Positions 16,811-55,522 of a stretch of DNA of 64,000 bases are shown piece after piece. The translations under genes were made by a program, and so were the position numbers. The stretch is from Candidatus Woesearchaeota archaeon (GTDB lineage: Archaea; Nanobdellota; Nanobdellia; Woesearchaeales; JACPJR01). The DNA lies in assembly GCA_016187565.1 (NCBI GenBank), contig JACPJR010000013.1:8391-72390 (forward strand). The letters run 5' to 3'. The notes beneath the pieces are model-generated. The model was given only the letters and a program-made list of their open reading frames with translations, was not told the origin of the DNA and did no database searches. Numbering within the stretch: position 1 is the stretch's first letter; each line of letters starts with the position of its first letter.

Positions 16811-16901
16811 GCCCCGGTAGCTTAGTTGGTAGAGCGTGCGGCTGTTATCCTCGTAAAGGAAAGAAACCGCAAGGTCACCAGTTCGAGTCTGGTCCGGGGC
16901 G
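16811..16901 (+). tRNA. tRNA-Asn (GTT) with an 18-nt canonical intron after position 37
   Basis: Acceptor GCCCCGG/CCGGGGC, D arm GCTTAGTTGGTAGAGC, anticodon stem TGCGG/CCGCA with loop CTGTTA[TCCTCGTAAAGGAAAGAA]A, T arm ACCAGTTCGAGTCTGGT. Confidence 0.9.
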
Positions 16902-16910
16902 CTTTTTTCT
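16902..16910 (+). terminator. Oligo-T tract after tRNA-Asn
   Basis: CTTTTTTCT lies immediately 3' of the tRNA. Archaeal terminators are oligo-T runs. Confidence 0.4.
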
Positions 16911-17473: not shown

Positions 17474-17482
17474 GAGAAAAAA
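17474..17482 (-). terminator. Oligo-T tract after 5S rRNA
   Basis: On the minus strand the 5S 3' end is followed by TTTTTTCTC. Confidence 0.4.
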
Positions 17483-17598
17483 GGTGACAGCTTCCCATGT
17501 TTCCCGTACGTAAGTACAGTACCACATGGAACGGAGGCCTGCTTGACTGCCGTGTTCGGAATGGGAACGGGTAGAGCCAGACCCCTATGGCCGTCTAA
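17483..17598 (-). rRNA. rrf: 5S ribosomal RNA, unlinked to 16S/23S
   Basis: Minus strand reads TTAGACGGCCATAGGGGTCTGGCTCTACCCGTTCCCATTCCGAACACGGCAGTCAAGC...GGGAAGCTGTCACC. It has the conserved CCCATTCCGAACACGG-AGTCAAGC core and helix I GACGGC/GCTGTC. Ends are accurate to within a few nt. Confidence 0.88.
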
Positions 17599-18653: not shown

Positions 18654-21600
18654 TTACAAATACTCATGCCATGCTTTTATCTTCAAATCCGTGAGTTTCT
18701 TAAACGTCAATGCCTCCACGAGTTGATGGAAGATCTGGACATTATTGATTAATGGCACCGAATAATCAACGGTTGCTCGGCGAATAACATAATTCTGGTC
18801 ATCATCAAGCCGTTTTTCTGGATTAGGAATAGACACCACCAGATCTATTTTCTTTTGACGTAACAGTGTTAAAATATTCGGTTCTCCTGTTTCATGGGCC
18901 TTATAGACACGGCGTGCCTCAACACCGTTTTTCATAAGAAACTGATGCGTATGCTCAGTGGCATACAAGACAAACCCAAGCTTTTGTAGTCGTTTGCAGG
19001 TACTGATCAATTTGTACCTTGTTTTGTCACCGCCAATACTCACAAGAACATTCTTCTTTGGCATGACAAAACCCGTAGCAATCATGGCCTTCAAGAATGC
19101 TTCATGAAGGTCATCTCCAAGACAAGCGACTTCACCGGTTGAAGCCATTTCAACATGTAATGTGGGGTCTGCACCCTTTAATCGAGAAAAGGAAAATTGA
19201 GGGGCTTTAACACCAACATAATCGAGCTCAAGTGAAGACCTTGTCAAGGGAACACTTTTCTCACCAAGAATTGCTTTTGTTGCCAGGTCAATAAGGTTGA
19301 GATGAAGCACTTTAGAAACAAAGGGAAAGCTTCGTGATGCCCGCAGATTGCATTCAATCACCTTGATCTCATTTTCCTTGGCAATAAACTGGATATTGAA
19401 TGGGCCGGTAATGTGCAGTGCATGAGCGATCTGTTTTGCAATAGTTTTAATACGGCGGATGGTCTCGATATAGGTTCGTTGTGGAGGTAAGATGATCGTG
19501 GCATCTCCACTGTGGACACCTGCATTTTCAAGATGTTCGCTAATGACTGAAAAAACAATAGCACCACGATATGCTACACCATCAAGCTCAATTTCCCTGG
19601 CATTGGTAATAAACTTTGAAAGTACTACCGGATATTCTGGACTAAGATGGGTTGCTTCAGAGAGGTACTGTTGCAGGTCATTGCGATTAAAGGCAACGTT
19701 CATGGCAGCACCACTTAAGACATACGATGGCCGAACAAGGATAGGGTAACCAACCTCTTCGGAGAACTTCGCAGCATCCTCGAAGGTAGTTAATTCTTTC
19801 CACATGGGCTGATCAATCCTCAAAGAGTCAAGCAACTGTGAGAATTTATGACGATCTTCCGCGCGATCAATGTCAAGGGGAGAGGTCCCTAAAATGTTCA
19901 TACCTGCCTCATGACATTTCAATGCTAAGGTATTGGGGATCTGCCCTCCCATAGAAACAATAAGCCCAAGCGGTTGTTCCTTATCATAGATATCGGCAAC
20001 TGCTTCAAAGCTTAATTCCTCAAAATACAGCTTGTCAACAATGTCATAATCAGTACTGACGGTTTCGGGATTGTAGTTTACCATAATGGTTTCGAAACCA
20101 CGCTTACGTAAGGCATTAACCGTACTGACGCAACACCAGTCAAATTCAACACTTGAACCAATTTTATACGAACCAGATCCAAGGACTATAATCTTCTTTT
20201 TTTTCTTCATATTTTTTGTTTCGTTTTTGTTTTTAGTTCCATTCTCTGAAGAAGTAGTCTCTTGGAAGGTAATATCATCTTCCTGACCATTATAAGTAAG
20301 ATACAAATAATTGGTCTGGGCAGGATATTCAGCAGCTAAGGTATCTATCTGTTTTACGACCGGAAAGATGTTGAGCTGCTTTCGCAATTCTCGTACTTCT
20401 CGTTCTCTTTTATCGAGGATCATACCGATTTGTTTATCTGAAAATCCGTGCTGCTTTGCTTTCATGAAAAGCGAAGAAGAAACAGATGAGGAAATATCAT
20501 TCTTCCTTGTAGCGGCAAGCTCCTGTTCTAAATGAATGATATTTTGGATCTTGTACAAGAACCAGGGATCAATACCACTTAAGCCATGAATCCGTTCAAT
20601 ACTAAATCCATTCTTTAATGCTTCCACAATGGCAAAAATTCTCTCGTCTGTTGGTTCACGGATATCTATGTCAAGTTCACGCACATTGACCGTATTACAG
20701 ACTAAACCATACATCCCTATGTGAAGCATACGAATAGCCTTCTGGAGGGCTTCTTCAAACTTTCTTCCGATGGCCATGACTTCGCCAACACTCTTCATTT
20801 CTGAGCCTATTTTGTTCGAAACGTTGCGGAATTTCTTTAAATCCCATCGTGGAATCTTCACAACAACATAATCCAAGGCAGGCTCGAAACATGCTTTCGT
20901 TACTCTGGTTACCGAATTTTCGAGTTCAGGTAAGGTATAACCAAGTGCTAATTTTGCAGCAACAAATGCAAGAGGGTAACCTGTTGCTTTTGAGGCCAGT
21001 GCTGAACTCCGAGAAAGGCGTGCATTGACTTCGATAATACGATAATCTTCTGAACGAGGATCTAACGCAAATTGGATATTACATTCTCCGACAATACCTA
21101 AATGTCTGATAACCTTAAGGGAGATTTCACGCAGCTTATGATACTCGCTATTCGTAAGGGTTTGTGAAGGCGCAACGACAATACTCTCTCCAGTATGGAT
21201 CCCTAGCGGATCGAAGTTTTCCATATTACAAACCGTAATGCAGTTATCTACACCATCACGAACCACTTCATACTCGATCTCTTTCCATCCACCCAACCAT
21301 TCCTCAATCAGTACCTGAGGTGTGTAGGTAAAGGCTTGGGTAACTACTTCACGTAATGTTTGTTCATCCTTTGCTATACCACTGCCTCTTCCCCCTAATG
21401 CATAGGCGACTCGCGTCATTACTGGATAACCAATGGTTTTTGCTGCAGTAAGTCCATCGTGAACAGAGGTTACCGCTATACTCTGTGGAGTTTTAACTGA
21501 AATTTCATGCAACCGCTTCACAAAGCGATCACGATCTTCAGTATCAATCACCGTTTCAACCGGGGTACCAAGAACACGGACATGGTATTTCTGTAAGGTT

Positions 21601-21917
21601 CCTTGTTTATGGAGAGCGACTCCACAATTAAGTGCGGTTTGTCCACCAAAACTCAAAAGAATACTCTCTGGCTTTTCTTTCCGTATAATCTGTTCAACAA
21701 AATAAGGCGTTACCGGTAGAAAATAAATCTTGTCTGCCATACCTTCACTGGTTTGAATAGTGGCAATATTAGGGTTGATCAAAATAGTGTAGATCCCTTC
21801 TTCTCGTAATGCTTTTAAGCATTGTGATCCCGAGTAGTCAAATTCACCAGCCTCACCTATCTTCAATGCCCCAGATCCTAAGATCAGTGCTGTTTTTGGT
21901 TTTTCTGTTATGCCCAT
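18654..21917 (-). CDS. carB: Carbamoyl-phosphate synthase large subunit
   Basis: 1087 aa with duplicated ATP-grasp halves and a C-terminal MGS-like domain. A Lys/Asn-rich linker lies between the halves. Confidence 0.97.
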   Translation of the reverse strand: MGITEKPKTALILGSGALKIGEAGEFDYSGSQCLKALREEGIYTILINPNIATIQTSEGMADKIYFLPVTPYFVEQIIRKEKPESILLSFGGQTALNCGVALHKQGTLQKYHVRVLGTPVETVIDTEDRDRFVKRLHEISVKTPQSIAVTSVHDGLTAAKTIGYPVMTRVAYALGGRGSGIAKDEQTLREVVTQAFTYTPQVLIEEWLGGWKEIEYEVVRDGVDNCITVCNMENFDPLGIHTGESIVVAPSQTLTNSEYHKLREISLKVIRHLGIVGECNIQFALDPRSEDYRIIEVNARLSRSSALASKATGYPLAFVAAKLALGYTLPELENSVTRVTKACFEPALDYVVVKIPRWDLKKFRNVSNKIGSEMKSVGEVMAIGRKFEEALQKAIRMLHIGMYGLVCNTVNVRELDIDIREPTDERIFAIVEALKNGFSIERIHGLSGIDPWFLYKIQNIIHLEQELAATRKNDISSSVSSSLFMKAKQHGFSDKQIGMILDKREREVRELRKQLNIFPVVKQIDTLAAEYPAQTNYLYLTYNGQEDDITFQETTSSENGTKNKNETKNMKKKKKIIVLGSGSYKIGSSVEFDWCCVSTVNALRKRGFETIMVNYNPETVSTDYDIVDKLYFEELSFEAVADIYDKEQPLGLIVSMGGQIPNTLALKCHEAGMNILGTSPLDIDRAEDRHKFSQLLDSLRIDQPMWKELTTFEDAAKFSEEVGYPILVRPSYVLSGAAMNVAFNRNDLQQYLSEATHLSPEYPVVLSKFITNAREIELDGVAYRGAIVFSVISEHLENAGVHSGDATIILPPQRTYIETIRRIKTIAKQIAHALHITGPFNIQFIAKENEIKVIECNLRASRSFPFVSKVLHLNLIDLATKAILGEKSVPLTRSSLELDYVGVKAPQFSFSRLKGADPTLHVEMASTGEVACLGDDLHEAFLKAMIATGFVMPKKNVLVSIGGDKTRYKLISTCKRLQKLGFVLYATEHTHQFLMKNGVEARRVYKAHETGEPNILTLLRQKKIDLVVSIPNPEKRLDDDQNYVIRRATVDYSVPLINNVQIFHQLVEALTFKKLTDLKIKAWHEYL

Positions 21918-23076: not shown

Positions 23077-23242
23077 ACTAAAAAAAGAAGAAACTTTCTC
23101 CTCCTTCTTAAAGATTGTGGTGGTCAACTAGCTAGATGAAGGTCATGTAGTGACTTTACCCAAAAAGGGTAAATTTACTATTGTCTTGTAGTCCAAAAAC
23201 TTTTAATAGTGCATGTCCCTTATCTTTTTTTAAGGTAAGGCT

Positions 23243-24187
23243 ATGGGGTTTATCGACTTTTTAAAAAAGAGGAAAGAATCATCAGGAAGTACCAGTACTT
23301 CACAAATTTCTGCAACCGAGGAAGGGGATGCAGGCTTTAATCTAGATCTCCCTCCAACTCCGGATATAGACAGCTTAGAAGCACCTCAACCGACATCTCC
23401 CTTAACCCCCCCACCACTTCCAGAACCCAAAAGAATATCTAAACCACGTCTACAAGATCAACAACCAATTCCTCATCGAGGGGATATTCCACCGATTTCA
23501 GTGGTCCCACGCCAAGATGTTCGAACTTCTTCTTACCAAACGCAACACCAACCACAACCACGAATAATGCCAACGCAACCACGTAGACAGGAGCCTTCTT
23601 TTCAACCACCTGAACAAGAGATTTCAAGACAAAAAAATGCCCTAGGACCGGAATATCCACAACTTCAAGAAAGCGATCAAGATCCCCTCTCGCTTCCTGA
23701 AAATGCTGAAGACTCATTTATGGAAGAAACTGAAATGATAGATAACCATGAGATACCACAACTCCAAGTTCCGGATCCTCCTCTCCAAGCTCAGAGAGGA
23801 AATGTTCCCTATGTTCTGGTACCCTCTGCAGTTCCGGGCCAGAATCCTATCCCTATAGTTCCACCATCACTCCAGAAAATAAGTGATGTACATCACAAAA
23901 AAGTTGCTCGTCCCTCATCTGAATCGTTAGATGTTTTTTCTAGGGAAGAGGATAAACAAGAACAAAAAGGCCCACAGTTTATCAATGTCAATGAGTTTAG
24001 ATCAGTACTTCAAGGCATTGAAGAAGGAAGTATGCTCTTAACAAAAACAGGTGATACTATTAGTCATATAAAGAACATTGACGCAGCTAAGGAAGGAGCT
24101 ATAGCGTCATTGAAAATGAGTCTTGGAGAAATCCAAAAACGGTTCCTTGTTATTGATGGCATTCTTTTTCGGGAAGGAAATGGATAA
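23243..24187 (+). CDS. Hypothetical protein: N-terminal amphipathic segment, long Pro/Gln-rich linker, C-terminal helical domain (copy 1 of 3)
   Basis: 314 aa. It begins MGFIDFLKKRK, then has about 200 aa of low complexity (PPTPDIDSLEAPQPTSPLTPPPLPEP...). The C-terminal about 70 aa are alignable to the next two ORFs. Confidence 0.75.
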   Translation: MGFIDFLKKRKESSGSTSTSQISATEEGDAGFNLDLPPTPDIDSLEAPQPTSPLTPPPLPEPKRISKPRLQDQQPIPHRGDIPPISVVPRQDVRTSSYQTQHQPQPRIMPTQPRRQEPSFQPPEQEISRQKNALGPEYPQLQESDQDPLSLPENAEDSFMEETEMIDNHEIPQLQVPDPPLQAQRGNVPYVLVPSAVPGQNPIPIVPPSLQKISDVHHKKVARPSSESLDVFSREEDKQEQKGPQFINVNEFRSVLQGIEEGSMLLTKTGDTISHIKNIDAAKEGAIASLKMSLGEIQKRFLVIDGILFREGNG

Positions 24188-24199
24188 AAAGGTGGAAAC

Positions 24200-24421
24200 A
24201 TGGATACACAACCAACGTTATTTGTAAAAATTGATGATTACAACCAAGTAGCTGAGATTCTTGATGAAATCAAAGGGAAGATGGAAGAAGCAAAAAAAGC
24301 AATGGAAACCCTCATGGAGCTAAAAGCCAAAGAAGATGCAGAATTACAGAGTTGGCAAGATGGATTAGATCAGATTAATGAACGAATGCATTTTATCGAA
24401 CAGACTGTTTTCAACCGATAA
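24200..24421 (+). CDS. Hypothetical small coiled-coil protein (helical domain copy 2)
   Basis: 73 aa with AGGTGG SD. LFVKIDDYNQVAEILDEIKGK...LMELKAKEDAELQSWQDGLDQINERMHFIEQTVF aligns to the C-terminus of the upstream ORF. Confidence 0.75.
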   Translation: MDTQPTLFVKIDDYNQVAEILDEIKGKMEEAKKAMETLMELKAKEDAELQSWQDGLDQINERMHFIEQTVFNR

Positions 24422-24450
24422 CATTTTCAACAAAAGAGATGAGGTATAAT

Positions 24451-24849
24451 ATGGGTGAAAAGTCGCCAGAGGAGCAGAAAAGTGTTTTTTATACACCAAT
24501 TCCTCAGAAACGAGAAGTAAGGAAGGCAGTTTTAGAATCAACAAAAGTAAGCATCCAATTTCTGAAACGATTTGAACAGCTGAAGGCATTGCGCCAGCAA
24601 AAGGCTACAGCTTATACCGGGCTTAAGGAAGTTATCACCGAAATATCCTCACAACTTAGCCGATGCAAGGCAATGCTCCCTAAGCAACAGATAAAAGACC
24701 TTCCGGTCATAGAGGGAAGTGTTGCTTCTCCGAATAAAGAGGCAACTGAAAAGAAAAATCAAAGTGAAGCAAAGAAAAAAGCAAGTGAGCTTGAGGCATT
24801 AGAAGCTTCATTGAGCGAAATTGAAGCAAAACTAGGCAATCTTAATTAA
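24451..24849 (+). CDS. Hypothetical coiled-coil protein (divergent helical domain copy 3 plus charged tail)
   Basis: ATG at 24451 has better SD spacing (GAGGT) than 24439. Has an LKALRQQKATAYTGLKEVITEISSQL segment and a Lys/Glu-rich C-terminus. Confidence 0.7.
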   Translation: MGEKSPEEQKSVFYTPIPQKREVRKAVLESTKVSIQFLKRFEQLKALRQQKATAYTGLKEVITEISSQLSRCKAMLPKQQIKDLPVIEGSVASPNKEATEKKNQSEAKKKASELEALEASLSEIEAKLGNLN

Positions 24850-24935
24850 AGCCGATCTTTAGATTTCTATAAGCAAAGGACAAGTTTGAGGAAATAACAA
24901 GATTTATTAATTTCAGGTTATTTTTCCCTCTATTC

Positions 24936-25400
24936 ATGGAAGCCTTTCAAGAGGCGCGTGCCAAAGCTCTTCATCACCTTAAAATTGCAGGACACATGCT
25001 TGAAGTAACGTATCCATTGGTAAAGGATACGAGACTTTTACTAAGGGTATTGCACAACCTCGATACATCGTTGGAATATACGATGAAAGCAATATTAGGA
25101 TACGATCTCTATTATAAGCGTATTCCTCCATTTTCGACCGAATTTCAATCGCTCTTTGCCACCTTCCGAGCAAGGTGCGCAAGAAGATACAACCTCGGTG
25201 AACAACAGTTCAAGGTCATCCAAGAGGTAAGGTTCCTTATTAAAGAACATAAAGAAAGCCCGGTTGCCTTTGCACGAAAAGGTTCATTGGTCATGTGCTC
25301 TGACAGTTACGATGTAACCATCCTGAGCGTGCAAAAACTCCGTACCATGATGCAAGAGACAAAATTCCTCATAGACTTTATGAATAAAAAAATTGAATAA
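24936..25400 (+). CDS. Hypothetical all-alpha protein (tandem paralog 1)
   Basis: 154 aa. The N-terminal ALHHLKIAGHMLEVTYPLVKDTRLLLRVLHNL parallels AIRELKRADHLIFVSLKYTRTVDIFKSIIERL of the next ORF. Confidence 0.75.
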   Translation: MEAFQEARAKALHHLKIAGHMLEVTYPLVKDTRLLLRVLHNLDTSLEYTMKAILGYDLYYKRIPPFSTEFQSLFATFRARCARRYNLGEQQFKVIQEVRFLIKEHKESPVAFARKGSLVMCSDSYDVTILSVQKLRTMMQETKFLIDFMNKKIE

Positions 25401-25421
25401 AAATCGTTTAAGAAAAGAAAA

Positions 25422-25892
25422 ATGGAAGATTCATATGATGATGCAATTCGCGAACTAAAGCGTGCAGACCACCTTATTTTTGTGAGCCTTAAGTATACTC
25501 GAACCGTTGATATCTTTAAGAGTATTATTGAACGATTACTGGCAGCCTTCAACCACACGATTGTGTGGATGCTTGACCAGGCAAAAGAAGAGCAAAAAAT
25601 AGACACTATTCCTAGTTCTCCCGGACTTCAGTGTAATCTTCTCAAATCAGTCTATAAAGAAGATCAGAAACTCTTGGAGTATATAGCATTCTATCTCTAT
25701 TTACGGAAGCTCGATAAGGCAACCTACACTCCCAAAAATGAATTCAGGAGGCATGTTACCATGATGGCTGTTCTCGAATCAAATGAAGTTACCGATATAA
25801 CCATGGAAGATATGCACGAGTATTTCAAAAAAACAAAGGAATATTTTGAATACATTACCGAGCAGTATAAAAAGAAAGAAGGTCATGAATAA
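25422..25892 (+). CDS. Hypothetical all-alpha protein (tandem paralog 2)
   Basis: 156 aa, same length class and motif order as 24936-25400. Its stop abuts the minD-like start. Confidence 0.75.
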   Translation: MEDSYDDAIRELKRADHLIFVSLKYTRTVDIFKSIIERLLAAFNHTIVWMLDQAKEEQKIDTIPSSPGLQCNLLKSVYKEDQKLLEYIAFYLYLRKLDKATYTPKNEFRRHVTMMAVLESNEVTDITMEDMHEYFKKTKEYFEYITEQYKKKEGHE

Positions 25893-26723
25893 ATGGCTCG
25901 TTTTGTTAGTCTGGTCTCTGGAAAAGGTGGCGTCGGAAAGACTTCATCAGCAATTAATCTGGCTGCTGCATTAACTGATTTTGGGAGAGAGGTTATTCTG
26001 GTCGATGCTGATATTAACGCATCAAACATGGGAATTCTTTTAGGATACCATAAACCAGCAGTGAGCTTGCAAGAGTGTTTAGCTGGCAAAAAAAAGATAA
26101 CCAATGCTATCTGTATCCATCCTTCAGGGCTTAAAGTCATTTTTTCAGATGTGGCTTTAGACGCTCATGCCTTTACCTTAGAACATTTAGGAGAGAAACT
26201 TCGCGAGTTACAAAACTTAGCAGAGATCATTCTTATTGATGGCGCAGCTGGCTTAGGTGAGGAGGCAAAAGCGGCCATTAAAGCTGCAGACGATGTGATG
26301 ATTATTACGAATCCAGAATTACCGGCAGTAACCGATGCATTAAAAACCGTGAAGATCGCAAAGGATCTCAAGAAAAATATCCTCGGTGTTGTTATTACGC
26401 GAGTTAAAGGAGACCATCTCGAGATGAGTCCTACGAACATCAACCAGATGCTTCAGCAAAAAGTTATTGCAACCATTCCCGACGATGAAGTAATGCGATC
26501 GCTTCATCGTATTCAGTATCCAACGGTCGTGTCCCATCCAGAATCAAAGGTTGCAAAAGCATATCGAAAATTAGCTGCAAACCTCATTGGAGCAACCTAT
26601 GAAGAAAACTTACCAGAACCAAAAAAAGATCTTCTTTCCACAGTCAAAGATCTCTTCATACGAAAAAACTTACGAAAAGAACGAGAAGAAAGAGCAAAAA
26701 AATATGAAAAAAAGCGTGCATAA
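25893..26723 (+). CDS. MinD/ParA-family P-loop ATPase (archaeal MinD-like) with basic C-terminal tail
   Basis: Deviant Walker A SGKGGVGKTS, Walker B ILIDGAAG, and the archaeal MinD-like ITNPELPAVTDALKT. The tail is KKDLLSTVKDLFIRKNLRKEREERAKKYEKKRA. Confidence 0.9.
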   Translation: MARFVSLVSGKGGVGKTSSAINLAAALTDFGREVILVDADINASNMGILLGYHKPAVSLQECLAGKKKITNAICIHPSGLKVIFSDVALDAHAFTLEHLGEKLRELQNLAEIILIDGAAGLGEEAKAAIKAADDVMIITNPELPAVTDALKTVKIAKDLKKNILGVVITRVKGDHLEMSPTNINQMLQQKVIATIPDDEVMRSLHRIQYPTVVSHPESKVAKAYRKLAANLIGATYEENLPEPKKDLLSTVKDLFIRKNLRKEREERAKKYEKKRA

Positions 26724-27231
26724 GCTTCTGCAAAAGGGTTGGTCACCAGAAGAAATCAAAACAGTCCTCAAGCATTGGAGGGTAGCAGAAGCACGAAAAC
26801 ATCCGAGCGTACGATTCCTGGATGCATCAGCCTATTGGTTTTTCGTTGTTATTCTTTTCTTTGTCCATGTTGGGTTACAGATCCTGTTGTTCCCTTTCCT
26901 TCTCTCGTTTCCCTCTCTTGCAGTTTTGTTAGTGATTCTTGTGTTGGGAATACCGTTTGGTTATCTGACATACACTTGTGTGGAGGAAATGAAACAGTTC
27001 ACCAAAAAAAAGCATGTGGAAAGGATTTATGTCATCCCACTGATTTTTGCCGTTATTACCCTAAGCGCGCTGACCGTTATCGCGAATAAAATAAAATTAC
27101 TGTTACACCTCCAAACATCACCACAGAGTATTGTCATGATTGTGGTAGTCTATGTCGTGAGTTTTATTCTTCCTTTCTTGCTACATGAAATTACCTTACA
27201 AAAGGCAGAAAATACACCATCCAATCTCTGA
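26704..27231 (+). CDS. Hypothetical polytopic membrane protein
   Basis: ATG at 26704 overlaps the minD-like stop by 20 nt. It starts with a short soluble N-terminus (LLQKGWSPEEIKTVL) followed by about 4 TM helices. The longer track ORF from 26587 would overlap minD by 137 nt. Confidence 0.7.
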   Translation: MKKSVHKLLQKGWSPEEIKTVLKHWRVAEARKHPSVRFLDASAYWFFVVILFFVHVGLQILLFPFLLSFPSLAVLLVILVLGIPFGYLTYTCVEEMKQFTKKKHVERIYVIPLIFAVITLSALTVIANKIKLLLHLQTSPQSIVMIVVVYVVSFILPFLLHEITLQKAENTPSNL

Positions 27232-27245
27232 AAAGAATGGTGTAG

Positions 27246-28262
27246 CTATAACGCATGATAAAGAAACGTGCCGTTATGTTCTTCTCTCCTTGCCTGACCA
27301 TTTTCTTCAAACATTTCAAGATTTCCAATGACCTCTGCCAATGCAAGGAAAGATTCATCTGCACTAAAACGGGACTTACCATTAAGCCTCTCAGCAAAAA
27401 GTTCATGCACGATATCAGCAGCTGTTTTTCCGGTACTTCCTCTCAGAAGCCCGATGATAGCATCTGCTCTTTTTGCATGATGCGCTTTTACAAAATCAAT
27501 ATATGCTCTATGATCTTCAATAGGGTCTCCATGCCCCGGAAGAGCTGTTCCTAAATCCCTGCTACAGAGGGTGTCTAAAGTAGCAAGAAACGCCTTTAAT
27601 CCTCTATCGCTGTTTCCACCACTAAAAAAAGGATTTGGTGTTTTGTCCCTCCAAAACGTATCACCACAGAGAAAGTATGGACCAACCAATAATCCAATGG
27701 AATCCTCAGTATGGCCAGGACAATGGATAATTTCTCCACCCAAGGTATCATCATAGCCTTGATTAACTGTTCTTATCCGTGTTGTATCAACCGTAGAACC
27801 ATAGCGAGTATATCCTTCAAAGATACGAGCAACATGACTTACCACCCTTGGAGCGAAACCTGCACCTTTGAAAATAGTTTCATAGGGCGTATAGGCATCT
27901 CCCTGCTCAGTGGGAACCAAATACCTTCTTCCATGACGATGGACAATAACTTTCGGACCAAACTCGTTGACAATGTAGGCTGCCAATCCACGATGATCAA
28001 AATGATGATGGGTCAGAACAAGAGCATCAAGAGAAGTAACTCCCAAGCTTGCTAAGCCCTGGGTAAGGTGTTGTTGTGCTTCCGCATCATTAGGACCAGC
28101 ATCAACTAAGGTCGTATGGTCATTATGCCTTATCAGATAAACATTGACTGGACCAACCCCAAATGGCGTGGGCAGGATTATTCGTGAAACAGAAATGCCA
28201 GTCGAGCTATAGGTTACTATAGTTTCGCTTGCTGAAGTTTGAAAACTGCTTTGATAGCTCAT
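27246..28262 (-). CDS. MBL-fold metallo-hydrolase
   Basis: HHHFDHRG metal motif and downstream GHT/GH residues. Start reset to ATG 28262, because the track ORF start (28361) runs into tRNA-His. Confidence 0.85.
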   Translation of the reverse strand: MSYQSSFQTSASETIVTYSSTGISVSRIILPTPFGVGPVNVYLIRHNDHTTLVDAGPNDAEAQQHLTQGLASLGVTSLDALVLTHHHFDHRGLAAYIVNEFGPKVIVHRHGRRYLVPTEQGDAYTPYETIFKGAGFAPRVVSHVARIFEGYTRYGSTVDTTRIRTVNQGYDDTLGGEIIHCPGHTEDSIGLLVGPYFLCGDTFWRDKTPNPFFSGGNSDRGLKAFLATLDTLCSRDLGTALPGHGDPIEDHRAYIDFVKAHHAKRADAIIGLLRGSTGKTAADIVHELFAERLNGKSRFSADESFLALAEVIGNLEMFEENGQARREEHNGTFLYHAL

Positions 28263-28331
28263 GGTATCCGCCTTTGGAAAAGGTTTTTCATGTGCGTTAA
28301 CATTACTATTGATGAGGTCATAAGAATAGAG

Positions 28332-28425
28332 GGCGGTAAAGGGGAATCGAACCCCTTCCACAGGATTTCTGCAAGATGTAAATGGTTGCCACAGTCCCGT
28401 ATTCTACCATTAAACTACTACCGCC
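28332..28425 (-). tRNA. tRNA-His (GTG) with encoded G-1 and a 22-nt canonical intron
   Basis: Minus strand G-GCGGTAG...CGGGA CTGTGG[CAACCATTTACATCTTGCAGAA]A TCCTG...AGGGGTTCGATTCCCCT TTACCGC C. The extra 5' G opposite discriminator C is the His identity element. Confidence 0.85.
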
Positions 28426-29158: not shown

Positions 29159-29407
29159 TTATTGTTCATCCTTATGATAAATCTCCAAAAAAATGATTTT
29201 ATCTTGCTCCTTTATAAATACATAGGATAACCGAAATGGAGCAACATAGAGTTCCCTTGTGCCTTTTCTTTCATATCTCATTGGCTTACCGATTTCCGGA
29301 TTATCAATGATCTTCTTGATTTGCTTTTTTATATGATCCTTTAACGAACTATTTCTTATTTTTTGTATTCTTCTCTCAAATAGAATACTAAACTCAACCG
29401 TTACCAT
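29159..29407 (-). CDS. RelE/ParE-family type II toxin
   Basis: 82 aa with IKKQIKKIIDNPEIGKPMRYERKGTRELYVAPFRLSYVF...IIFLEIYHKDE. Overlaps the upstream antitoxin by 7 nt. Confidence 0.8.
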   Translation of the reverse strand: MVTVEFSILFERRIQKIRNSSLKDHIKKQIKKIIDNPEIGKPMRYERKGTRELYVAPFRLSYVFIKEQDKIIFLEIYHKDEQ

Positions 29408-29679
29408 TTTTCAAGTTCTTTTAAGAAATCCTTGGCACTCATACTTCTAAATTCTCCTTTCTCATAAGCCTTCCATGCTTCTTCGGTTCTTCTCGCAAAT
29501 TCTATATCCTCTAATAGATTTTTTTCCAAGGTGCTTACTTTTTTCATAATAAGCTGATCTTTACTTTGAATGATAATCAGTTTTTCACCTTCTTGAATAT
29601 ATCTTCTCATATTGGCAGGTATGACAACCTGACCCTTTGAGCTCATTTTAGTTATAGCAACTTCCACAGGGATCACCAA
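29401..29679 (-). CDS. AbrB/SpoVT-type antitoxin
   Basis: TKMSSKGQVVIPANMRRYI swapped-hairpin motif. The start is ambiguous (TTG 29679, GTG 29676 or ATG 29646). Confidence 0.75.
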   Translation of the reverse strand: MVIPVEVAITKMSSKGQVVIPANMRRYIQEGEKLIIIQSKDQLIMKKVSTLEKNLLEDIEFARRTEEAWKAYEKGEFRSMSAKDFLKELEKW

Positions 29680-42753: not shown

Positions 42754-45700
42754 CTATTCTCGAATACCAGAAGCACGTTCTTCTTCAACAGGCATAGGTG
42801 GTGGTAAGAGTGTATACTCTCCCCATTCACAGTAACTTGTTGTCTTCACTAAGAACCCACGCATGAGATCTGCTTCAGTAATAAGTGTTGAAATCTCAGC
42901 GGATAGCCATTGCTGATCTTCTGAATTCCAGCGATAAAGCTTATGGTACTGACAATTGCTTCCCAAATCAATAAATCGCTGACCAATCATATCATAGGTA
43001 ACGGGCATCAAGTTCCAACCTTCAGACAAACTAAGATCACTGTACAAGGTTTCTTTTCCGAGGGTAACGTCTAAAGTACAGGAAGTATAACTGTACATCC
43101 ATAACGCTCGTTCTGAAATGTATTTGAGGAATGCAGAGCCGAGTTGCTTTTGTGCATCCCGGAAGGAAAGATACTTTTGCTCCTCATCATTATACACAAA
43201 TGCCAAGGGTTTTTTATCTTCAGAACAGGTTGAGGTATCAAAGGTAATCAAACGGTTAGGGATACTTACCAAATTCCAGCCGTCGATGAGCTGGATCTGT
43301 TTTGTGTGGCGTTTCTCAACAGAGCTTTGATTACCAATGACAAGGGTACCTGAGGCAACATCATTCTCTGATCCATCTGTAGAGATAACAACAACCGTGA
43401 AATGATACACTTCTCCCTCGGCAACAGTTTTATCCGTAAGTTGTTCTGGAGAGAAAAAAGTTCCAGCTGAAACTGGACGAACAACAACACTCTCAGGAAG
43501 AGCAACTGATTCTGTTGCTGTTGTTGACGATGCTGTTGCTGATACTGCAACATCTGTTGCAGGAAGTGCAACGGTTTCATAAACCACTGATGATTCAGAA
43601 GATTGTACTCTTCGAACAGATGCTGTTACAGATGTTACTGTGGCTTCAGCTTGTGTACTATCATCGCTTATACGTGGACCTGCTGCTCCGCCACCTCCTC
43701 CTGCAGATTCACCAATGTACGGCCATGCTGCACCAACACCACCTTTCTCTTCTTTAGGAGGGACTTCGCCACCACCAGCACCACCTCCGCCACTTGGTGC
43801 AGTGCTACTACCATAACTACTAACGCTCGTGACACTATCCGTAAGTTTTACCTTCTTGGTTTGGATGGTATAAGTAACCTGGTTACCAATCTCGGATGCA
43901 TAACCATAGTAAATCATATTGGTTACACCCAACTCACTACCCTCTTTTAAGAGGTAGGTTTCTCCTTCTTCAAGGTCTCCGATTGATTCTCCGTTAACGG
44001 TGAAATAAGCCTTTGGTCCTGAAGCAACTGCATCAACCGTTATGGCATACTCAACACCGTTTACCGTAACAGTCTTGCTGGTTCCTTCTTTCTGAGTAAA
44101 GGTTCCAACATCGCTACCACCGCCATTGCTCCGACTCTCAACCATAGGTCCTGCTCCTCCAGAACCGCCACTAGAAGTTCCAGTTTCAACAACTACCTCT
44201 TCATCAACGTCATTTAGATGGTCCGTAGTAGTACCACTTGTCTCTTCCTTAACAGAGGAAGAAGAATAAGAGTTACATGCCATTTCGGTACAACTGCCCG
44301 GATAAAGGTTACCATCACTTCCCATTACACAGCTACAGGTATTGCAATCACAACGAACCTCTTGTCCTTCTGAAAGGCCGCTGCAGTAATCTTTGTTGTA
44401 AATATTGCTGTCAGTACATCCCTTGAGAACAAAAACAACTCCTGTTGGTGAGGTAATAGTAACCACTGCAGAATTTGCAAAATTACCATGGTAATTGATA
44501 CTATCTACGGTTAAATTAAAACCACTTCCAAATGTCCATACCTCTCCTTGCTCCAATTGCAGTGAGGATTCTCCATTAACTGAAAAAGAAGCTTCTGTTG
44601 CACTTACTGTCTCAAGCACAAGTTGAAGTAATTCTCCATCCATTTCAATGGTTCTGGTAGTCCCTTGACGCAAAGAAAGGCTGACTGTTTTAGGGACGGT
44701 ATCTCGATCAGTTGCTACTGTTGTACTTGATGCAGTTGTTCCACCAACAATCTGTTTCTGGAGATTAAGACGAGAGGAAGTGTCAACAACAAGAGGAACT
44801 CGTTTTGTCTCACCTGGTCCGAGGGTTATGGTAGAAGGGAAATCCTTTGCAAAAGGTAGACCAACAATATCAAGTGTGTAATTCTGCTCCATTCTACCAT
44901 AATAACCAAAGAAGCGATCATCCTCAACAATAATCTCGTAATAAGCCTTTTCTCCAGCAGTTACCTCAACGCTTCTTGGCTCTAGACCTACATCAACCCA
45001 TGAGACCGTTTGATCATTTCCTTTGGTTAGTTTAAACAATCCCTTATCAGCGTTTAGGGATAAAACGCTAAGCTGTGCACCAAACACACCACGTTGCTTG
45101 CCTTCCGTTAAGGTAATAAACGGCAGAGAAAAATAATTGTCGGCTAAGCGAGCAGTAACATCCATGTGCGCAAAAAAATATAGTAGGCCAGGACAACCCA
45201 TCATACTAAAACAAATATCCTCACCTGACATACTGGATATACTGTTCAAGGTTATTTCCATGTCCCTATAGTCAACGACATGTGCGGTCTGGCCAGCAGA
45301 CAAAACAAACTCATCCCCTAGCATAACATCAATGGTTTTCGGCATAGCTGTTGAAGAAGGTATAATCACCGCAGTTGCAGCCTCTGCAGAGGTTGCAACA
45401 GAACTACGACCACCAGCACCAGAATCAACTGAATCAGTAACAGCAGACGCTGTTTCTGTAGGAGTATCCTGAATCGTCATTGTTCGTGTTGCATCGCTAT
45501 CATGGACATCATTCCAGAGCACCAGATCTATTCGTGTGCCTGTATAGGTTTGGCCAGTGTCCTCAAGCACTACTTTCTTTGGTGTAGGATACGCAAGGAT
45601 GAGATGAGTCTTATCAGTATACTTGACTCCTTGATCTACCCATTTCTCGACAAAGATTTTATTTCCACTCGTGTATGCAGTAAAACGAAGATCTTCCTGG

Positions 45701-47694
45701 TCAAGTAATAAGCTAGGAGAAGCATCTTCAAGATGGGCAATGACCTTATTACCAATTTTTTCGGTATAGGCTCTGTTTGGATCATTCCAATGAACATTAC
45801 CTACCCATGGTTCAGAGGTGATGTAAAAGTCCTCAATACCATAGTAATCATCAAAATAATCACGTGGATCCGTGGTTGTTCGAGGAGCTACAACCGCATC
45901 TGCCATTGATGAGCCTCCCGATACCCTGACATAGCCAGAAAGTTTATTGTTGTGTTCATCGAGCTCATTGATGCTATTCTCTGGATCAATAGTAAATGAA
46001 GGAGTGTACGTCATTGTAGTGGAGGGGGATGAAGTACCGGTGTTATACTGAAAGCTAAGGGTTAATGTTCTTTCCTCTCCTACGGCAAGATTCTCAAGAA
46101 CCCCGTCTTGGTTTCCTCTTGCCCACCCAGCACCAATGCGAGCATTACTACCAATGTCATCAGCAATAGCCTTCCAGGAAACTCGTGCAACAGGCGCATA
46201 GTCATTACGCACGACAACTTTCATGGTAACGTTTTCATTATTCTTTGCTTGGGTTGGACTCAACTCGAGGCTCTTGACAACAAGATCGGGTTTTTTGATA
46301 TCATCATAACCAGTCACATACACCCAATAATCATCCTTGTCAAACCATTGGTAGAGCTCATTTCCTGCTTTATCTCGGACAACTAACCTTCCAAGATGCC
46401 AAGGCCCTATCTCAGAAAACTTAGGAACACTAAACGAGGTCGTATAGGTACTGGTTTGGGAGTCGTACGACCATTGTTGGGAATACTGATACTGCCCTTG
46501 AGCAAAGGACTCAAGCATGGCAAAGAGACTACTCTCATCAATACCTGAAAGATCGTCAGTGAGTTTAACTCGTAATGTTACGGTATTACCATAACGGAGT
46601 TGTTCTGGTGAGAGCTTGATTTCAGAAAAAACTGGCGCTTTCGTGTCATCCTTATTATTATTTGACTTGACATTAAAACCAGCCTCATACTGATTGCCAT
46701 AATACAACACTGCTTTGTTATGAGCATTATCTTCAATTTCAAGTTGGGTTATTTTCCAGTATCCTTGTTCTGCATAATCTTTGATGACAATGGAGGATTG
46801 CCATGTATTTTCGCTAATTAATTGCCACGGGGTAAACAGCTCGTTCTGCTTTCCGGTAGGACTTTTTGCCGTTGCACGTAAGGTCTTGACTCCAGAAAGA
46901 TCATCTCTTGCGACAACGGTCAGCGTAACCGTTTCTCCATAAAAAACTGATTCGGTAACTGCAATGCTCACCAACTCTGGCTCTTGGACATCACTCTGTT
47001 CGCTTACCACACGGAAGGTTTTAGTAAAATCATCAGGATTGTACAGATATTCCTGATTGGCAACAGCATCGATCACCAAAACTTGACTGATCTTCCAAAA
47101 ACCATCTTCTGCGTTTGTTGGCACAGCAACAGGAAAACTATAGGTCGTTTCAGGATTGTGTTGTACGCCACCTCCCGCATAGAGGGTCTGACCACCTGAA
47201 GGGCTCTTTGCATCAATTGCAAGATAACTCACACCAGTAAAATCATCCTCAACAGTTAATATGACCGTAATGGTTTGCCCTGCCTTGACACTGTCTGCAT
47301 CTGTCGTAATTCCCTGAAGAACAGGAGCATGTACGTCTTCAGCTGAGAGGCTCAATTCCACAATATCTGTTGTTCCCTGCTGACTAATTTCAGTAACCAC
47401 CAGTTCGCTACCATCCTTCAGCAGAACATGCTCGCCAAGCGTTGCAGTAATGGTTTCTCCCTCAACCTGGAGCATGGCAGTTTGGGTATCAATCACTTTG
47501 TTGAGTTTCAGTGCATAATTTTTTATGCCTAATTGAACCGTTTTCGACTGCTCTTTTTGAAGGCTCGCATCAACAGAGATCGTTCCGGCATCTACCTCAA
47601 GAGCAACAAGAGGCACTATGCTCATAACCATAAGAAAGGCCATGAATAATGACTGCATTTTTTTTGTTATGGTTCTCAGGGTAGTATTTTCCAT
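42754..47694 (-). CDS. Giant secreted/surface protein (about 1646 aa) with several internally repeated domains
   Basis: ATG 47694 with GGAGG SD (the track start at 47718 is GTG). N-terminal signal/anchor MQSLFMAFLMVMSIVPLVA. It contains 3 Ig-like repeats, a CARDB-like segment and 3 VNGE modules. It also has a Cys-rich knot, Gly-rich linkers, and two GWNL(V/M)(S/P) motifs near the C-terminus. Confidence 0.85.
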   Translation of the reverse strand: MENTTLRTITKKMQSLFMAFLMVMSIVPLVALEVDAGTISVDASLQKEQSKTVQLGIKNYALKLNKVIDTQTAMLQVEGETITATLGEHVLLKDGSELVVTEISQQGTTDIVELSLSAEDVHAPVLQGITTDADSVKAGQTITVILTVEDDFTGVSYLAIDAKSPSGGQTLYAGGGVQHNPETTYSFPVAVPTNAEDGFWKISQVLVIDAVANQEYLYNPDDFTKTFRVVSEQSDVQEPELVSIAVTESVFYGETVTLTVVARDDLSGVKTLRATAKSPTGKQNELFTPWQLISENTWQSSIVIKDYAEQGYWKITQLEIEDNAHNKAVLYYGNQYEAGFNVKSNNNKDDTKAPVFSEIKLSPEQLRYGNTVTLRVKLTDDLSGIDESSLFAMLESFAQGQYQYSQQWSYDSQTSTYTTSFSVPKFSEIGPWHLGRLVVRDKAGNELYQWFDKDDYWVYVTGYDDIKKPDLVVKSLELSPTQAKNNENVTMKVVVRNDYAPVARVSWKAIADDIGSNARIGAGWARGNQDGVLENLAVGEERTLTLSFQYNTGTSSPSTTMTYTPSFTIDPENSINELDEHNNKLSGYVRVSGGSSMADAVVAPRTTTDPRDYFDDYYGIEDFYITSEPWVGNVHWNDPNRAYTEKIGNKVIAHLEDASPSLLLDQEDLRFTAYTSGNKIFVEKWVDQGVKYTDKTHLILAYPTPKKVVLEDTGQTYTGTRIDLVLWNDVHDSDATRTMTIQDTPTETASAVTDSVDSGAGGRSSVATSAEAATAVIIPSSTAMPKTIDVMLGDEFVLSAGQTAHVVDYRDMEITLNSISSMSGEDICFSMMGCPGLLYFFAHMDVTARLADNYFSLPFITLTEGKQRGVFGAQLSVLSLNADKGLFKLTKGNDQTVSWVDVGLEPRSVEVTAGEKAYYEIIVEDDRFFGYYGRMEQNYTLDIVGLPFAKDFPSTITLGPGETKRVPLVVDTSSRLNLQKQIVGGTTASSTTVATDRDTVPKTVSLSLRQGTTRTIEMDGELLQLVLETVSATEASFSVNGESSLQLEQGEVWTFGSGFNLTVDSINYHGNFANSAVVTITSPTGVVFVLKGCTDSNIYNKDYCSGLSEGQEVRCDCNTCSCVMGSDGNLYPGSCTEMACNSYSSSSVKEETSGTTTDHLNDVDEEVVVETGTSSGGSGGAGPMVESRSNGGGSDVGTFTQKEGTSKTVTVNGVEYAITVDAVASGPKAYFTVNGESIGDLEEGETYLLKEGSELGVTNMIYYGYASEIGNQVTYTIQTKKVKLTDSVTSVSSYGSSTAPSGGGGAGGGEVPPKEEKGGVGAAWPYIGESAGGGGGAAGPRISDDSTQAEATVTSVTASVRRVQSSESSVVYETVALPATDVAVSATASSTTATESVALPESVVVRPVSAGTFFSPEQLTDKTVAEGEVYHFTVVVISTDGSENDVASGTLVIGNQSSVEKRHTKQIQLIDGWNLVSIPNRLITFDTSTCSEDKKPLAFVYNDEEQKYLSFRDAQKQLGSAFLKYISERALWMYSYTSCTLDVTLGKETLYSDLSLSEGWNLMPVTYDMIGQRFIDLGSNCQYHKLYRWNSEDQQWLSAEISTLITEADLMRGFLVKTTSYCEWGEYTLLPPPMPVEEERASGIRE

Positions 47695-47721
47695 TGCAGA
47701 CCTCCATATGTCTTTCACAAA

Positions 47722-55410: not shown

Positions 55411-55497
55411 ATGCGGGGAACGGGATTCGAACCCGCGTAGCCACTAAGGCCTACGGCCCTCAACCGTAGTCGATTGACCAGACTCCGACATCCCCGC
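55411..55497 (-). tRNA. tRNA-Leu (GAG), class II with long variable arm, no intron
   Basis: Minus strand GCGGGGA TG TCGGAGTCTGGTCAATCGAC TACGG TTGAGGG CCGTA GGCCTTAGTGGGCTAC GCGGGTTCGAATCCCGT TCCCCGC A. Confidence 0.9.
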
Positions 55498-55522
55498 ATA
55501 GAGGGATAGTCAGATAAGGGGT

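Follow-up and report, generated by a model that had tools for sequence, protein, structure and literature searches.

A seven-gene cluster with an archaeal-type MinD in a Woesearchaeota archaeon: possible juxtaposition of two separate modules

Gene organization of the cluster

Seven co-oriented genes, one of them encoding a MinD-type ATPase, raise the question of whether a single cellular machine is encoded here. The initial annotation of the window (the whole stretch of 64,000 nucleotides that was analysed) took them for a single machine centred on MinD, serving positioning, division or membrane remodelling, in which g1–g3 would be membrane-tethered scaffolds, g4 and g5 adaptors, MinD the switch and g7 a membrane partner. 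We consider this improbable. Our tentative preference is that the cluster consists of two independent, uncharacterised modules specific to Woesearchaeota/Nanoarchaeota, A (g1–g3) and B (g4–g7), which were set head-to-tail by a rearrangement in the window lineage and which work as proposed below. The ORF list of the window gives the following genes at 23243–27231:

23243..24187, + strand: g1, 314 aa
~23960–24169, + strand: C-terminal g2-like domain of g1 (aa ~240–309), homologous to g2
24200..24421, + strand: g2, 73 aa
24439/24451–24849, + strand: g3, 136/132 aa
24936..25400, + strand: g4, 154 aa
25422..25892, + strand: g5, 156 aa
25893..26723, + strand: g6 (MinD), 276 aa
26704..27231, + strand: g7, 175 aa from ATG, or 214 aa from a TTG at 26587

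The co-oriented set is real. The seven ORFs and the spacings first reported were reproduced exactly (12, 29, 86, 21 and 0 nt in order, then a 20-nt overlap, the 29-nt gap between g2 and g3 being counted from the 24451 start of g3), and the same genes were called independently on four metagenome contigs. The 24451 start is preceded by a GAGGT Shine-Dalgarno sequence. Common orientation and tight spacing speak for one machine. The stops and starts of g5, MinD and g7 abut or overlap, in the window as well as in other loci, which gives module B the character of an operon. It had also been stated that the partners of the ATPase fit no known family, and this was upheld: profile and PDB sequence searches (Pfam, NCBIfam, PADLOC, PHROGs, PDB) gave no family match for any of the six proteins other than g6.

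Two conserved elements are candidate promoters:

23175..23200, + strand: TATA-like block with CCAAAAACTTTTAATAGTG before g1, possibly the promoter of module A
24891..24927, + strand: 37-nt block with ATTTATTAAT, ~29 nt before the ATG of g4, which would be leaderless; possible internal promoter of archaeal type

The first block is identical in the relative L169 (84% identity), with flanks that differ. The second shows 100% identity to its counterpart in L169, while the 86-nt spacer has diverged in its 5' half, with indels; no Shine-Dalgarno sequence was found before g4. Conservation between these two genomes only suggests a separate promoter for g4–g7 in the 86-nt gap, and each module probably has its own. 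This conserved TATA-like block, separating g3 from g4, argues against one seven-part machine and suggests that g1–g7 are not read as one uninterrupted transcript.

Module A: the g1-g2-g3 trio

The N-terminus of g1 is formed by the hydrophobic and polybasic motif MGFIDFLKKRK (aa 1–11), whose hydrophobic moment of 0.29 is modest. It is followed by a linker (aa 13–235) with 18% Pro, 11% Ser and 11% Gln. This layout, recognized already in the initial annotation, is kept as a tether architecture in the g1 family: a MGLFxKKKK-type start is found in 42 of its 49 long members, together with Pro-rich linkers. Both jackhmmer and hhalign (99.7%, E 3.7e-25) show homology of the C-terminal domain to g2, the latter being its stand-alone 73-aa copy with the consensus PVFVKIDEYKxVL...ED.EL..W...L.EIE.K...ID..LFEP. 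Homologues of g2 amount to 1618 cluster representatives at E<=1e-3 and belong to no consistent Pfam family. The helical domain of g1 had been thought to recur in both g2 and g3; the recurrence holds for g2, and g3 was rejected as a g2-type repeat, hhalign giving only 24% and 5%. Instead, g3 is built of a helical N-domain, a Lys-rich linker and a near-invariant C-terminal helix, ELExLExxLSEIExKLxxL, the motif of which occurs in 66 of 68 cases.

The order g1-g2-g3 is fixed in nearly all of 80 g2-anchored loci, and where a locus extends far enough, g3 almost always follows g2. The usual neighbours of the trio are an RNase J-like MBL gene, PCNA and ScpB. Assignment of module A to ESCRT-III, PspA or Vipp1 was rejected: neither Snf7 nor PspA_IM30 matched g1–g3 or 51 g2 homologues, and no AAA ATPase gene was present in the 80 trio loci.

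The three-part layout of g1 is common to haloarchaeal CdpC, in which a membrane-binding motif at the N-terminus is connected by a long, disordered linker rich in Pro to a small domain at the C-terminus that binds a partner (10.64898/2026.07.16.738847). The anchors SepF and bacterial ZipA (amphipathic helix, IDR and CTD) are like g1 in layout only, and sequence similarity of g1 to SepF, ZipA or CdpC was not found. In contrast to CdpC, g1 is devoid of zinc ribbons and of any Cys, and its C-terminal domain, unlike those of all three proteins, represents a distinct ~70-aa family with the stand-alone paralog g2. The assignment of g1 as an FtsZ anchor of the SepF/CdpC/ZipA type was rejected on account of the missing family match and cysteines, with layout alone in common; no link to FtsZ was seen in any neighbourhood examined.

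Module A would be a membrane-tethered helical complex. The N-terminal motif of g1 may bind the membrane, with the C-terminal domain carried on the long flexible Pro-rich linker. This domain would pair with its paralog g2 and with g3, and g3 may use its conserved C-terminal helix, carried on a Lys-rich linker, to dock a further partner.

Module B: g4 and g5 have a predicted HEPN-like fold

The description of g4 and g5 as tandem all-alpha paralogs proved half right. Their paralogy is evident from profile-profile comparison (hhalign 97.2%, E 4.7e-11), although it is invisible to BLASTP, and a three-stranded beta-meander in both AF2 models (g4: pLDDT 87, pTM 0.84; g5: pLDDT 84, pTM 0.80) contradicts the all-alpha character. 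The models also give HEPN-fold bundles in place of the coiled-coil scaffolds suggested at first. In Foldseek, HEPN proteins lead for g4 (2hsb with prob 1.00 and TM 0.65/0.77; also 4nqf, 1wol and HepT), and HepT/HEPN proteins lead, weakly, for g5 (7bxo_G with prob 0.98 and TM 0.47/0.55); the E-values are weak, 8e-3 at best, and helical bundles match easily. Since the two independent models retrieve almost only HEPN proteins on top, a HEPN-like fold of g4 and g5 appears probable in spite of these E-values.

The predicted bundle, of the four/five-helix up-down type, is the one found in AF_0298 (2HSB), ST0689 (1WOL) and the HepT of MntA-HepT. The g4 and g5 models differ from these HEPN proteins by the extra beta-meander. 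The sequences match no HEPN Pfam model: over 32 g5 and 14 g4 members no consistent match appeared, HEPN_AbiU2 having hit one member (E 0.073), and neither protein has a PDB sequence match. Another difference concerns the canonical Rx4-6H motif, which g4 lacks (17% have R-x5-H before the invariant His) and to which g5 conforms only approximately. HEPN proteins typically dimerise, which fits g4 and g5 as a paralog pair.

Could g4/g5 be a housekeeping HEPN RNA-binding protein or RNase of translation or RNA processing, co-expressed with NAC and ribosomal genes, with MinD and g7 as neighbours that share no mechanism with it? The fold of the models agrees with this, as do the invariant basic and His residues of g5 (KRADH, KYTRT and E[FY]RRH, within the motifs ELKRADH..SLKYTRTVD and E[FY]RRHVTM) and the R-x6-H spacing present at the E[FY]RRH site in 85% of 120 g5 homologues. 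The g5 of the window, however, has Pro/Lys at this site and lacks the first Arg, g4 is without the motif, and the model of g5 is at its least confident where the E[FY]RRH motif lies (pLDDT about 61–65). The genomic position is in favour of such a function: NAC lies immediately 5' of module B, often with a 4-nt overlap, and on the same strand in 79 g5-anchored loci, and the S13-S4-S11-RpoD operon lies downstream. Against it, the most constant partner is the membrane protein g7, which stands beside g5 or MinD in 70 of 84 g5-centred loci and is often translationally coupled, and the MinD gene fits exactly between g5 and g7, with codons that overlap. The constancy of g7 and this placement of MinD argue for a shared membrane-linked role, and a purely RNA-related function of the pair with unconnected neighbours seems to us rather unlikely.

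An anti-phage or toxin-antitoxin HEPN system was rejected. PADLOC gave no defence match for g4, g5 or g7, the housekeeping position is fixed in the 79 loci mentioned, and, as distinct from MntA-HepT, no MNT antitoxin partner is encoded. Unlike defence or TA islands, the locus is a housekeeping one and vertically inherited.

Module B: MinD (g6) and g7

The recognition of the sixth gene as a MinD-like ATPase with a deviant Walker A motif was correct. On the archaeal MinD model TIGR01969 g6 scores 217.8 bits (cut-off 201.75), and on the bacterial MinD model only 114 (cut-off 212.9). Its best PDB matches are the MinD proteins of A. fulgidus (MinD-1, 1HYQ), P. furiosus and P. horikoshii (Pyrococcus entries 1G3Q/1ION), with which it has the deviant Walker A in common: GKGGVGKT, in SGKGGVGKTS at aa 9–18, fits xKGGxGK[ST] with the signature lysine. 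By these sequence criteria g6 is a genuine archaeal-type MinD. Its C-terminus consists of the LLSTVKDLFIRKNL segment and a basic tail. The amphipathic helix proposed for this tail is moderate in character (muH up to 0.46 in DLLSTVKDLFIRKNL); a clearer helix of FFxxLLKKLGL type was found in 12 of 25 MinD homologues at the locus, the others being without it. The membrane-targeting appearance of both this C-terminus and the g1 N-terminus is a point in favour of a common machine.

As proposed, g7 is polytopic and coupled to the ATPase gene: it has about four hydrophobic segments, predicted as four TM helices after a ~35-aa cytosolic N-domain (LLQKGWSPEEI), and its reading frame begins within the last 20 nt of that of MinD. 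It has no family match.

H. volcanii MinD4 and MinD2 also belong to the closest known proteins. The C-terminal segment of g6, a candidate amphipathic helix, resembles the MTS of MinD4 (10.1101/2020.04.03.021790). In this survey of 2020 MinD was confined to Euryarchaeota, whereas the host of g6 is a DPANN archaeon. Haloarchaeal MinDs position the motility machinery and have no link to division (PMC11588486; 10.64898/2026.07.23.738820). The neighbours of g6, a HEPN-like pair and a 4-TM protein, are unrelated to the described MinD partners, HVO_0596 included. The Arco oscillator (ArcoABC) of FtsZ-using archaea, the only self-organising positioning system described in archaea, relies on amphipathic-helix membrane binding (10.64898/2026.07.23.738820); none of its components is homologous to g1–g7.

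Bacterial MinCDE is like module B in combining a MinD-type ATPase, presumably membrane-binding in module B as well, with small partner proteins in one operon, and the N-terminus of g1, judged by eye, presumably resembles the MinE membrane-targeting sequence. A bacterial Min system was nevertheless rejected for the cluster, since neither MinC nor MinE is encoded with MinD: MinE has no Pfam or NCBIfam match in the cluster, and the MinC model hits g2 only, at E 0.038 and with 13 bits where the cut-off is 183. A further difference from MinCDE is that in most genomes the locus can do without MinD.

Conservation of the two modules

Matches to g5 were found in at least 595 stretches of GTDB species genomes. 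The usual site has NAC on its 5' side and the S13 ribosomal operon on its 3' side, within a syntenic region that runs from Sec61beta and NAC to S13-S4-S11-RpoD-L18e-L13-S9-RpoN. In the loci compared, which are the best-scoring matches (80+80) and are not phylogenetically balanced, linkage is conserved within each module. It is not conserved for the seven genes together, as had been expected: the modules are kept separately, usually far apart, and abut only in the window lineage and one relative. The seven-gene order occurs only in near-identical contigs and in this relative from another sample (84% identity for g4). Its retention there favours one machine, and so does the distance of 8 kb or less between modules A and B in 5 of 84 further loci; the modules are adjacent in none of the five, and in no other locus examined does a g1–g3 homologue adjoin MinD. 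Besides, g4 is present in about half (46) of the 84 g5-centred loci and MinD in 26. Missing from ~70% of them, MinD is facultative and is not the hub it had been taken for. With the modules side by side only in this lineage, the cluster is not yet one proven seven-part machine.

The synteny of the whole Sec61beta/NAC to RpoN region, in which g4 and MinD come and go, would also be expected if the genes simply rode in a housekeeping super-operon of small, rarely rearranged genomes and their proteins acted independently. We find this doubtful: the 4-nt start/stop overlaps g4-g5, g5-MinD and MinD-g7 recur across divergent genomes, and in the window lineage g4–g7 left NAC as one block and remained together.

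Proposed mechanism of module B

On the favoured two-module reading, module B would be a HEPN-fold dimer in complex with the four-TM protein g7. In loci with g4 the dimer may be formed by g4 and g5, in the others by two copies of g5. MinD would be an accessory ATPase of some lineages: its ATP-bound dimers would use the C-terminal amphipathic helix to attach to the membrane and would control the site of assembly of the g4/g5-g7 complex, or whether it assembles at all. The absence of MinD from most g5 loci means that g5 and g7 work there without a locus-encoded MinD. The link of MinD to module B may be loose, and the conserved position between NAC and the ribosomal genes may instead indicate a role connected with translation or RNA.

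A bolder reading, to which as a whole we give little credence, would make module B a previously unrecognised DPANN MinD system, with the HEPN-fold heterodimer as regulator or cargo of MinD and the 4-TM protein as its dedicated membrane receptor. Module A would then be a filament or scaffold of a new kind, tethered to the membrane and functionally analogous to CdpC/SepF, with a MIM-like docking helix on g3. The joining of the two in the window lineage would be due to their cooperation at the division site of these very small cells, in its placement or its constriction.

The two modules represent unexplored archaeal cell biology. Within the g5-centred loci MinD and g4 tend to occur together: MinD is present in 21 of the 46 loci with g4 and in 5 of the 38 without it (p=0.0018, kinship ignored).

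Two modules in the seven-gene cluster

The cluster at 23243-27231 on the forward strand is formed by seven co-oriented genes, g1–g7, g6 encoding MinD. It is best described as two juxtaposed modules: module A (g1-g2-g3) and module B (g4-g5-MinD-g7). The initial annotation treated the same genes as one MinD-centred operon, a candidate module for positioning, division or membrane remodelling. Its gene arrangement is reproduced by the ORF listing: the seven ORFs are separated by 12, 29, 86, 21 and 0 nt and end with a 20-nt overlap. The start of g3 at 24451 is preferred on account of its GAGGT Shine-Dalgarno sequence and was also chosen by independent gene calls, and the start of g7 at 26704 is backed by the alignment of its family. 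According to gene calls, four metagenome contigs carry the same seven genes, and so does a contig from a different sample, with protein identity of 76–91%. The cluster as observed is real, and the description of the partners as uncharacterised stands too. Searches of Pfam, NCBIfam, PADLOC, PHROGs and PDB sequences with the non-MinD window proteins and all members of their family alignments gave only inconsistent low-score matches, with scattered noise of coiled-coil or membrane type (e.g. MtrG, Phage_scaffold, DUF2070). By sequence comparison, the partner families are truly uncharacterised, and their conservation is wide.

The modules are seldom neighbors. Of 84 loci anchored on g5, only 5 have module A at a distance of up to 8 kb from module B, and the two are adjacent in none; in the metagenome loci anchored on g2, the g1-g3 trio is not adjoined by module B. 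The g3-g4 spacer of 86 nt contains no Shine-Dalgarno sequence before g4 and harbors ATTTATTAAT ~29 nt before the g4 ATG. A 37-nt block around this element is identical in a relative with 84% identity in g4, the remaining spacer having diverged with indels, and a comparable conserved block is located upstream of g1. The two blocks fit two candidate promoters. A less likely alternative is that all seven proteins form one seven-part machine, as their shared orientation and tight spacing in the window could suggest. Such a machine with MinD as its hub was not borne out as a general unit, since MinD is optional and the cluster is made up of two parts.

Module B across genomes

In GTDB species genomes at least 595 stretches match the g5 profile; module B was counted in 84 loci, namely the 80 best of these matches and four metagenome loci. 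Presence of g7 (70/84), g4 (46/84) and MinD (26/84) in these loci shows a stable core of g5 and g7 with g4 and MinD as lineage-variable additions. Whenever a locus includes MinD, this is the gene that directly separates g5 from g7, and stop and start codons commonly overlap. Presence of g4 and presence of MinD are correlated (21/46 loci with g4 vs 5/38 without it; Fisher p=0.0018, uncorrected for phylogeny). Less probably, such an arrangement would reflect synteny without functional coupling. In the two-module description, module B would be a HEPN-fold dimer coupled to a small 4-TM protein, and MinD would serve as an optional membrane-binding ATPase.

A NAC gene is located upstream on the same strand in 79 g5 loci, an overlap of 4 nt or a gap of <20 nt being frequent, and the S13-S4-S11-RpoD-L18e-L13-S9-RpoN operon lies downstream of the g5 block. 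The setting of NAC, Sec61beta and the S13 operon is a possible hint at a translation- or membrane-targeting-linked role of this block. There is no NAC gene in the window; therefore the g4-g7 block has moved as a unit in the lineage of the window. Hundreds of DPANN species have preserved this gene set, in which MinD is optional and three families (g4, g5 and g7) are unannotated, in a housekeeping position adjoining NAC and ribosomal protein genes.

In most Woesearchaeota-type genomes g5 directly follows NAC, with Sec61beta further upstream. Many GTDB records with this Woesearchaeota-type locus are TPA assemblies titled "uncultured Methanosarcinales archaeon"; the titles seem to reflect mislabelling rather than true taxonomic breadth.

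Because of the NAC and Sec61beta neighbors, an Oxa1/Get-type insertase formed by g7 and MinD was considered and rejected: g7 has four TM segments, no coiled-coil hairpin and no EMC3/DUF106 match. Of 25 g7 homologues, 7 match Pfam DUF2070 weakly (E>=0.002); the members of this family are archaeal membrane proteins of unknown function. Most g7 proteins have a conserved cytosolic loop, FGLLFELVIRSIEHLEKKHH, which is degenerate in g7 of the window (26704-27231).

Predicted fold of g4 and g5

Pairwise BLASTP among g1-g5 gave nothing significant, and their relationships were seen only with profile methods. By hhalign g4 and g5 are paralogs (97.2%, E 4.7e-11), sharing an A-D-H motif in helix 1, the residues at the hairpin tip and an EF.R motif. 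The AlphaFold2 models of g4 (pLDDT 87, pTM 0.84) and g5 (pLDDT 84, pTM 0.80) share one topology, made up of a long hairpin of helices, two shorter helices, a meander of three strands and a long helix at the C-terminus. In Foldseek comparison with the PDB the top of both lists is occupied almost only by HEPN proteins. The best matches of the g4 model are AF_0298 (2hsb; prob 1.00, TM 0.65/0.77, E 8e-3), 4nqf, ST0689 and HepT toxins; g5 matches HepT/SO_3166 and 2hsb, more weakly than g4.

The models suggest a HEPN fold for g4 and g5. Retention of the canonical Rx4-6H motif is doubtful: in 85% of g5 homologues an R-x6-H pattern is found at the invariant E[FY]RRH site, but the first Arg is absent from g5 of the window, and g4 has no such motif. 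Since the models are HEPN-like and Rx4-6H is unclear, we assign g4 and g5 to a new family of HEPN-fold proteins and do not regard them as demonstrated HEPN nucleases. A housekeeping HEPN RNase with a link to translation is a less likely alternative; an active g5 of this kind would be unusual for archaea. A role of the HEPN pair in defence or as a toxin-antitoxin system was rejected, its housekeeping position being fixed and a PADLOC match being absent.

The MinD ATPase

The recognition of g6 as MinD-like was correct: it scores 217.8 bits on TIGR01969 (cut-off 201.75), i.e. it is a MinD of the archaeal type. Among PDB sequences, g6 is closest to A. fulgidus MinD-1 (E 3.6e-43) and the Pyrococcus MinDs; FleN/FlhG and bacterial MinD rank lower. 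The C-terminal segment of g6 is only moderately amphipathic; a C-terminal helix of FFxxLLKKLGL type is present in about half of the MinDs from the equivalent locus elsewhere.

To our knowledge, archaeal MinD proteins have no established partners, and the haloarchaeal ones are the only characterised examples. Published work gives the latter a role in positioning the motility machinery rather than in division (10.1101/2020.04.03.021790; PMC11588486), and placement of the division site in haloarchaea was recently assigned to the Arco GTPase oscillator, which is unrelated to MinD (10.64898/2026.07.23.738820). A division role of g6 therefore cannot be assumed. No FtsZ signature was found in the window.

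Module A

According to profile comparison, the C-terminal domain of g1 (g1C, aa ~240-309) is homologous to g2. The helical domain common to g1 and g2 had been reported in g3 as well, but g3 is not demonstrably related to either g1C or g2. The g2/g1C profile retrieved 1618 cluster representatives in an exhaustive HMMER search; those that carry a name are without exception hypothetical proteins, from Woesearchaeota or Nanoarchaeota. The family occurs as stand-alone proteins of ~75 aa and as the C-terminal domain of proteins of 130-364 aa with a Pro-rich linker; in 42 of 49 long proteins this linker is preceded by an N-terminal motif of the MGLFxKKKK type.

In 80 metagenome loci anchored on g2 (scanned with an eight-sequence g2 subset) the order g1-like, g2, g3 is kept nearly everywhere the contig is long enough. 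Downstream of the trio in these loci the usual neighbors are genes for an RNase J-like MBL protein and for PCNA; those upstream encode a lamin-tail-domain protein, a radical-SAM protein and ScpB. The g3 family was gathered from the same loci, a word-index search with g3 having matched only g3 itself and one close relative. A near-invariant C-terminal helix, ELEKLESELSxIExKLxxL[RK] (66/68; 24775-24846 in the window), preceded by a Lys-rich linker, characterizes this family.

By eye this helix resembles MIM1-type docking helices of ESCRT-III proteins, and together with the MGLFGKKK-like N-termini it led to an ESCRT-III reading of g1-g3. This reading is unsupported: a Snf7 match is absent, and no Vps4-like AAA gene lies nearby. 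The layout of module A is reminiscent of membrane anchors, for example haloarchaeal CdpC, which has an amphipathic N-terminus, a long disordered linker and a small C-terminal binding domain (10.64898/2026.07.16.738847); in contrast to CdpC, module A has no zinc ribbons, and there is no sequence similarity.

The locus is that of a MinD/ParA-type ATPase with new partner families, beside a new membrane-tether trio, g1-g3 being the second, strictly conserved gene set with a membrane-anchor layout. Both sets offer concrete candidate partners of MinD and candidate factors of the envelope or of division, in organisms about whose cell biology almost nothing is known; the small size of all these proteins would allow heterologous expression, liposome assays and complex prediction.

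Surrounding genes

The window is archaeal, with ~40% GC and three tRNA genes presumably bearing introns, and the named homologues of its genes belong to Candidatus Woesearchaeota and Nanoarchaeota. The RNA genes are as follows.

RNA genes of the window
16811-16902 (+), tRNA Asn-GTT (tRNA genes 88-94 nt, presumably with introns)
17482-17598 (-), 5S rRNA, stand-alone, no other rRNA genes adjoining
28331-28424 (-), tRNA Cys-GCA
55411-55498 (-), tRNA Leu-GAG

The MBL-fold (Lactamase_B) ORF at 27246-28361 (-) overlaps tRNA-Cys when read from its GTG start, and gene callers give a shorter product of 338 aa; it is distinct from the RNase J-like MBL protein usually encoded after g1-g3 in other genomes. 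A pair resembling ParE toxin and MazE antitoxin (82 and 92 aa; 29159-29679 (-)) is located just downstream of the cluster. The large subunit of carbamoyl-phosphate synthase (18654-21917 (-)) carries a Lys/Asn-rich insert (..ENGTKNKNETKNMKKKKK..) between its halves, and a very large ORF of 1654 aa occupies 42754-47718 (-).
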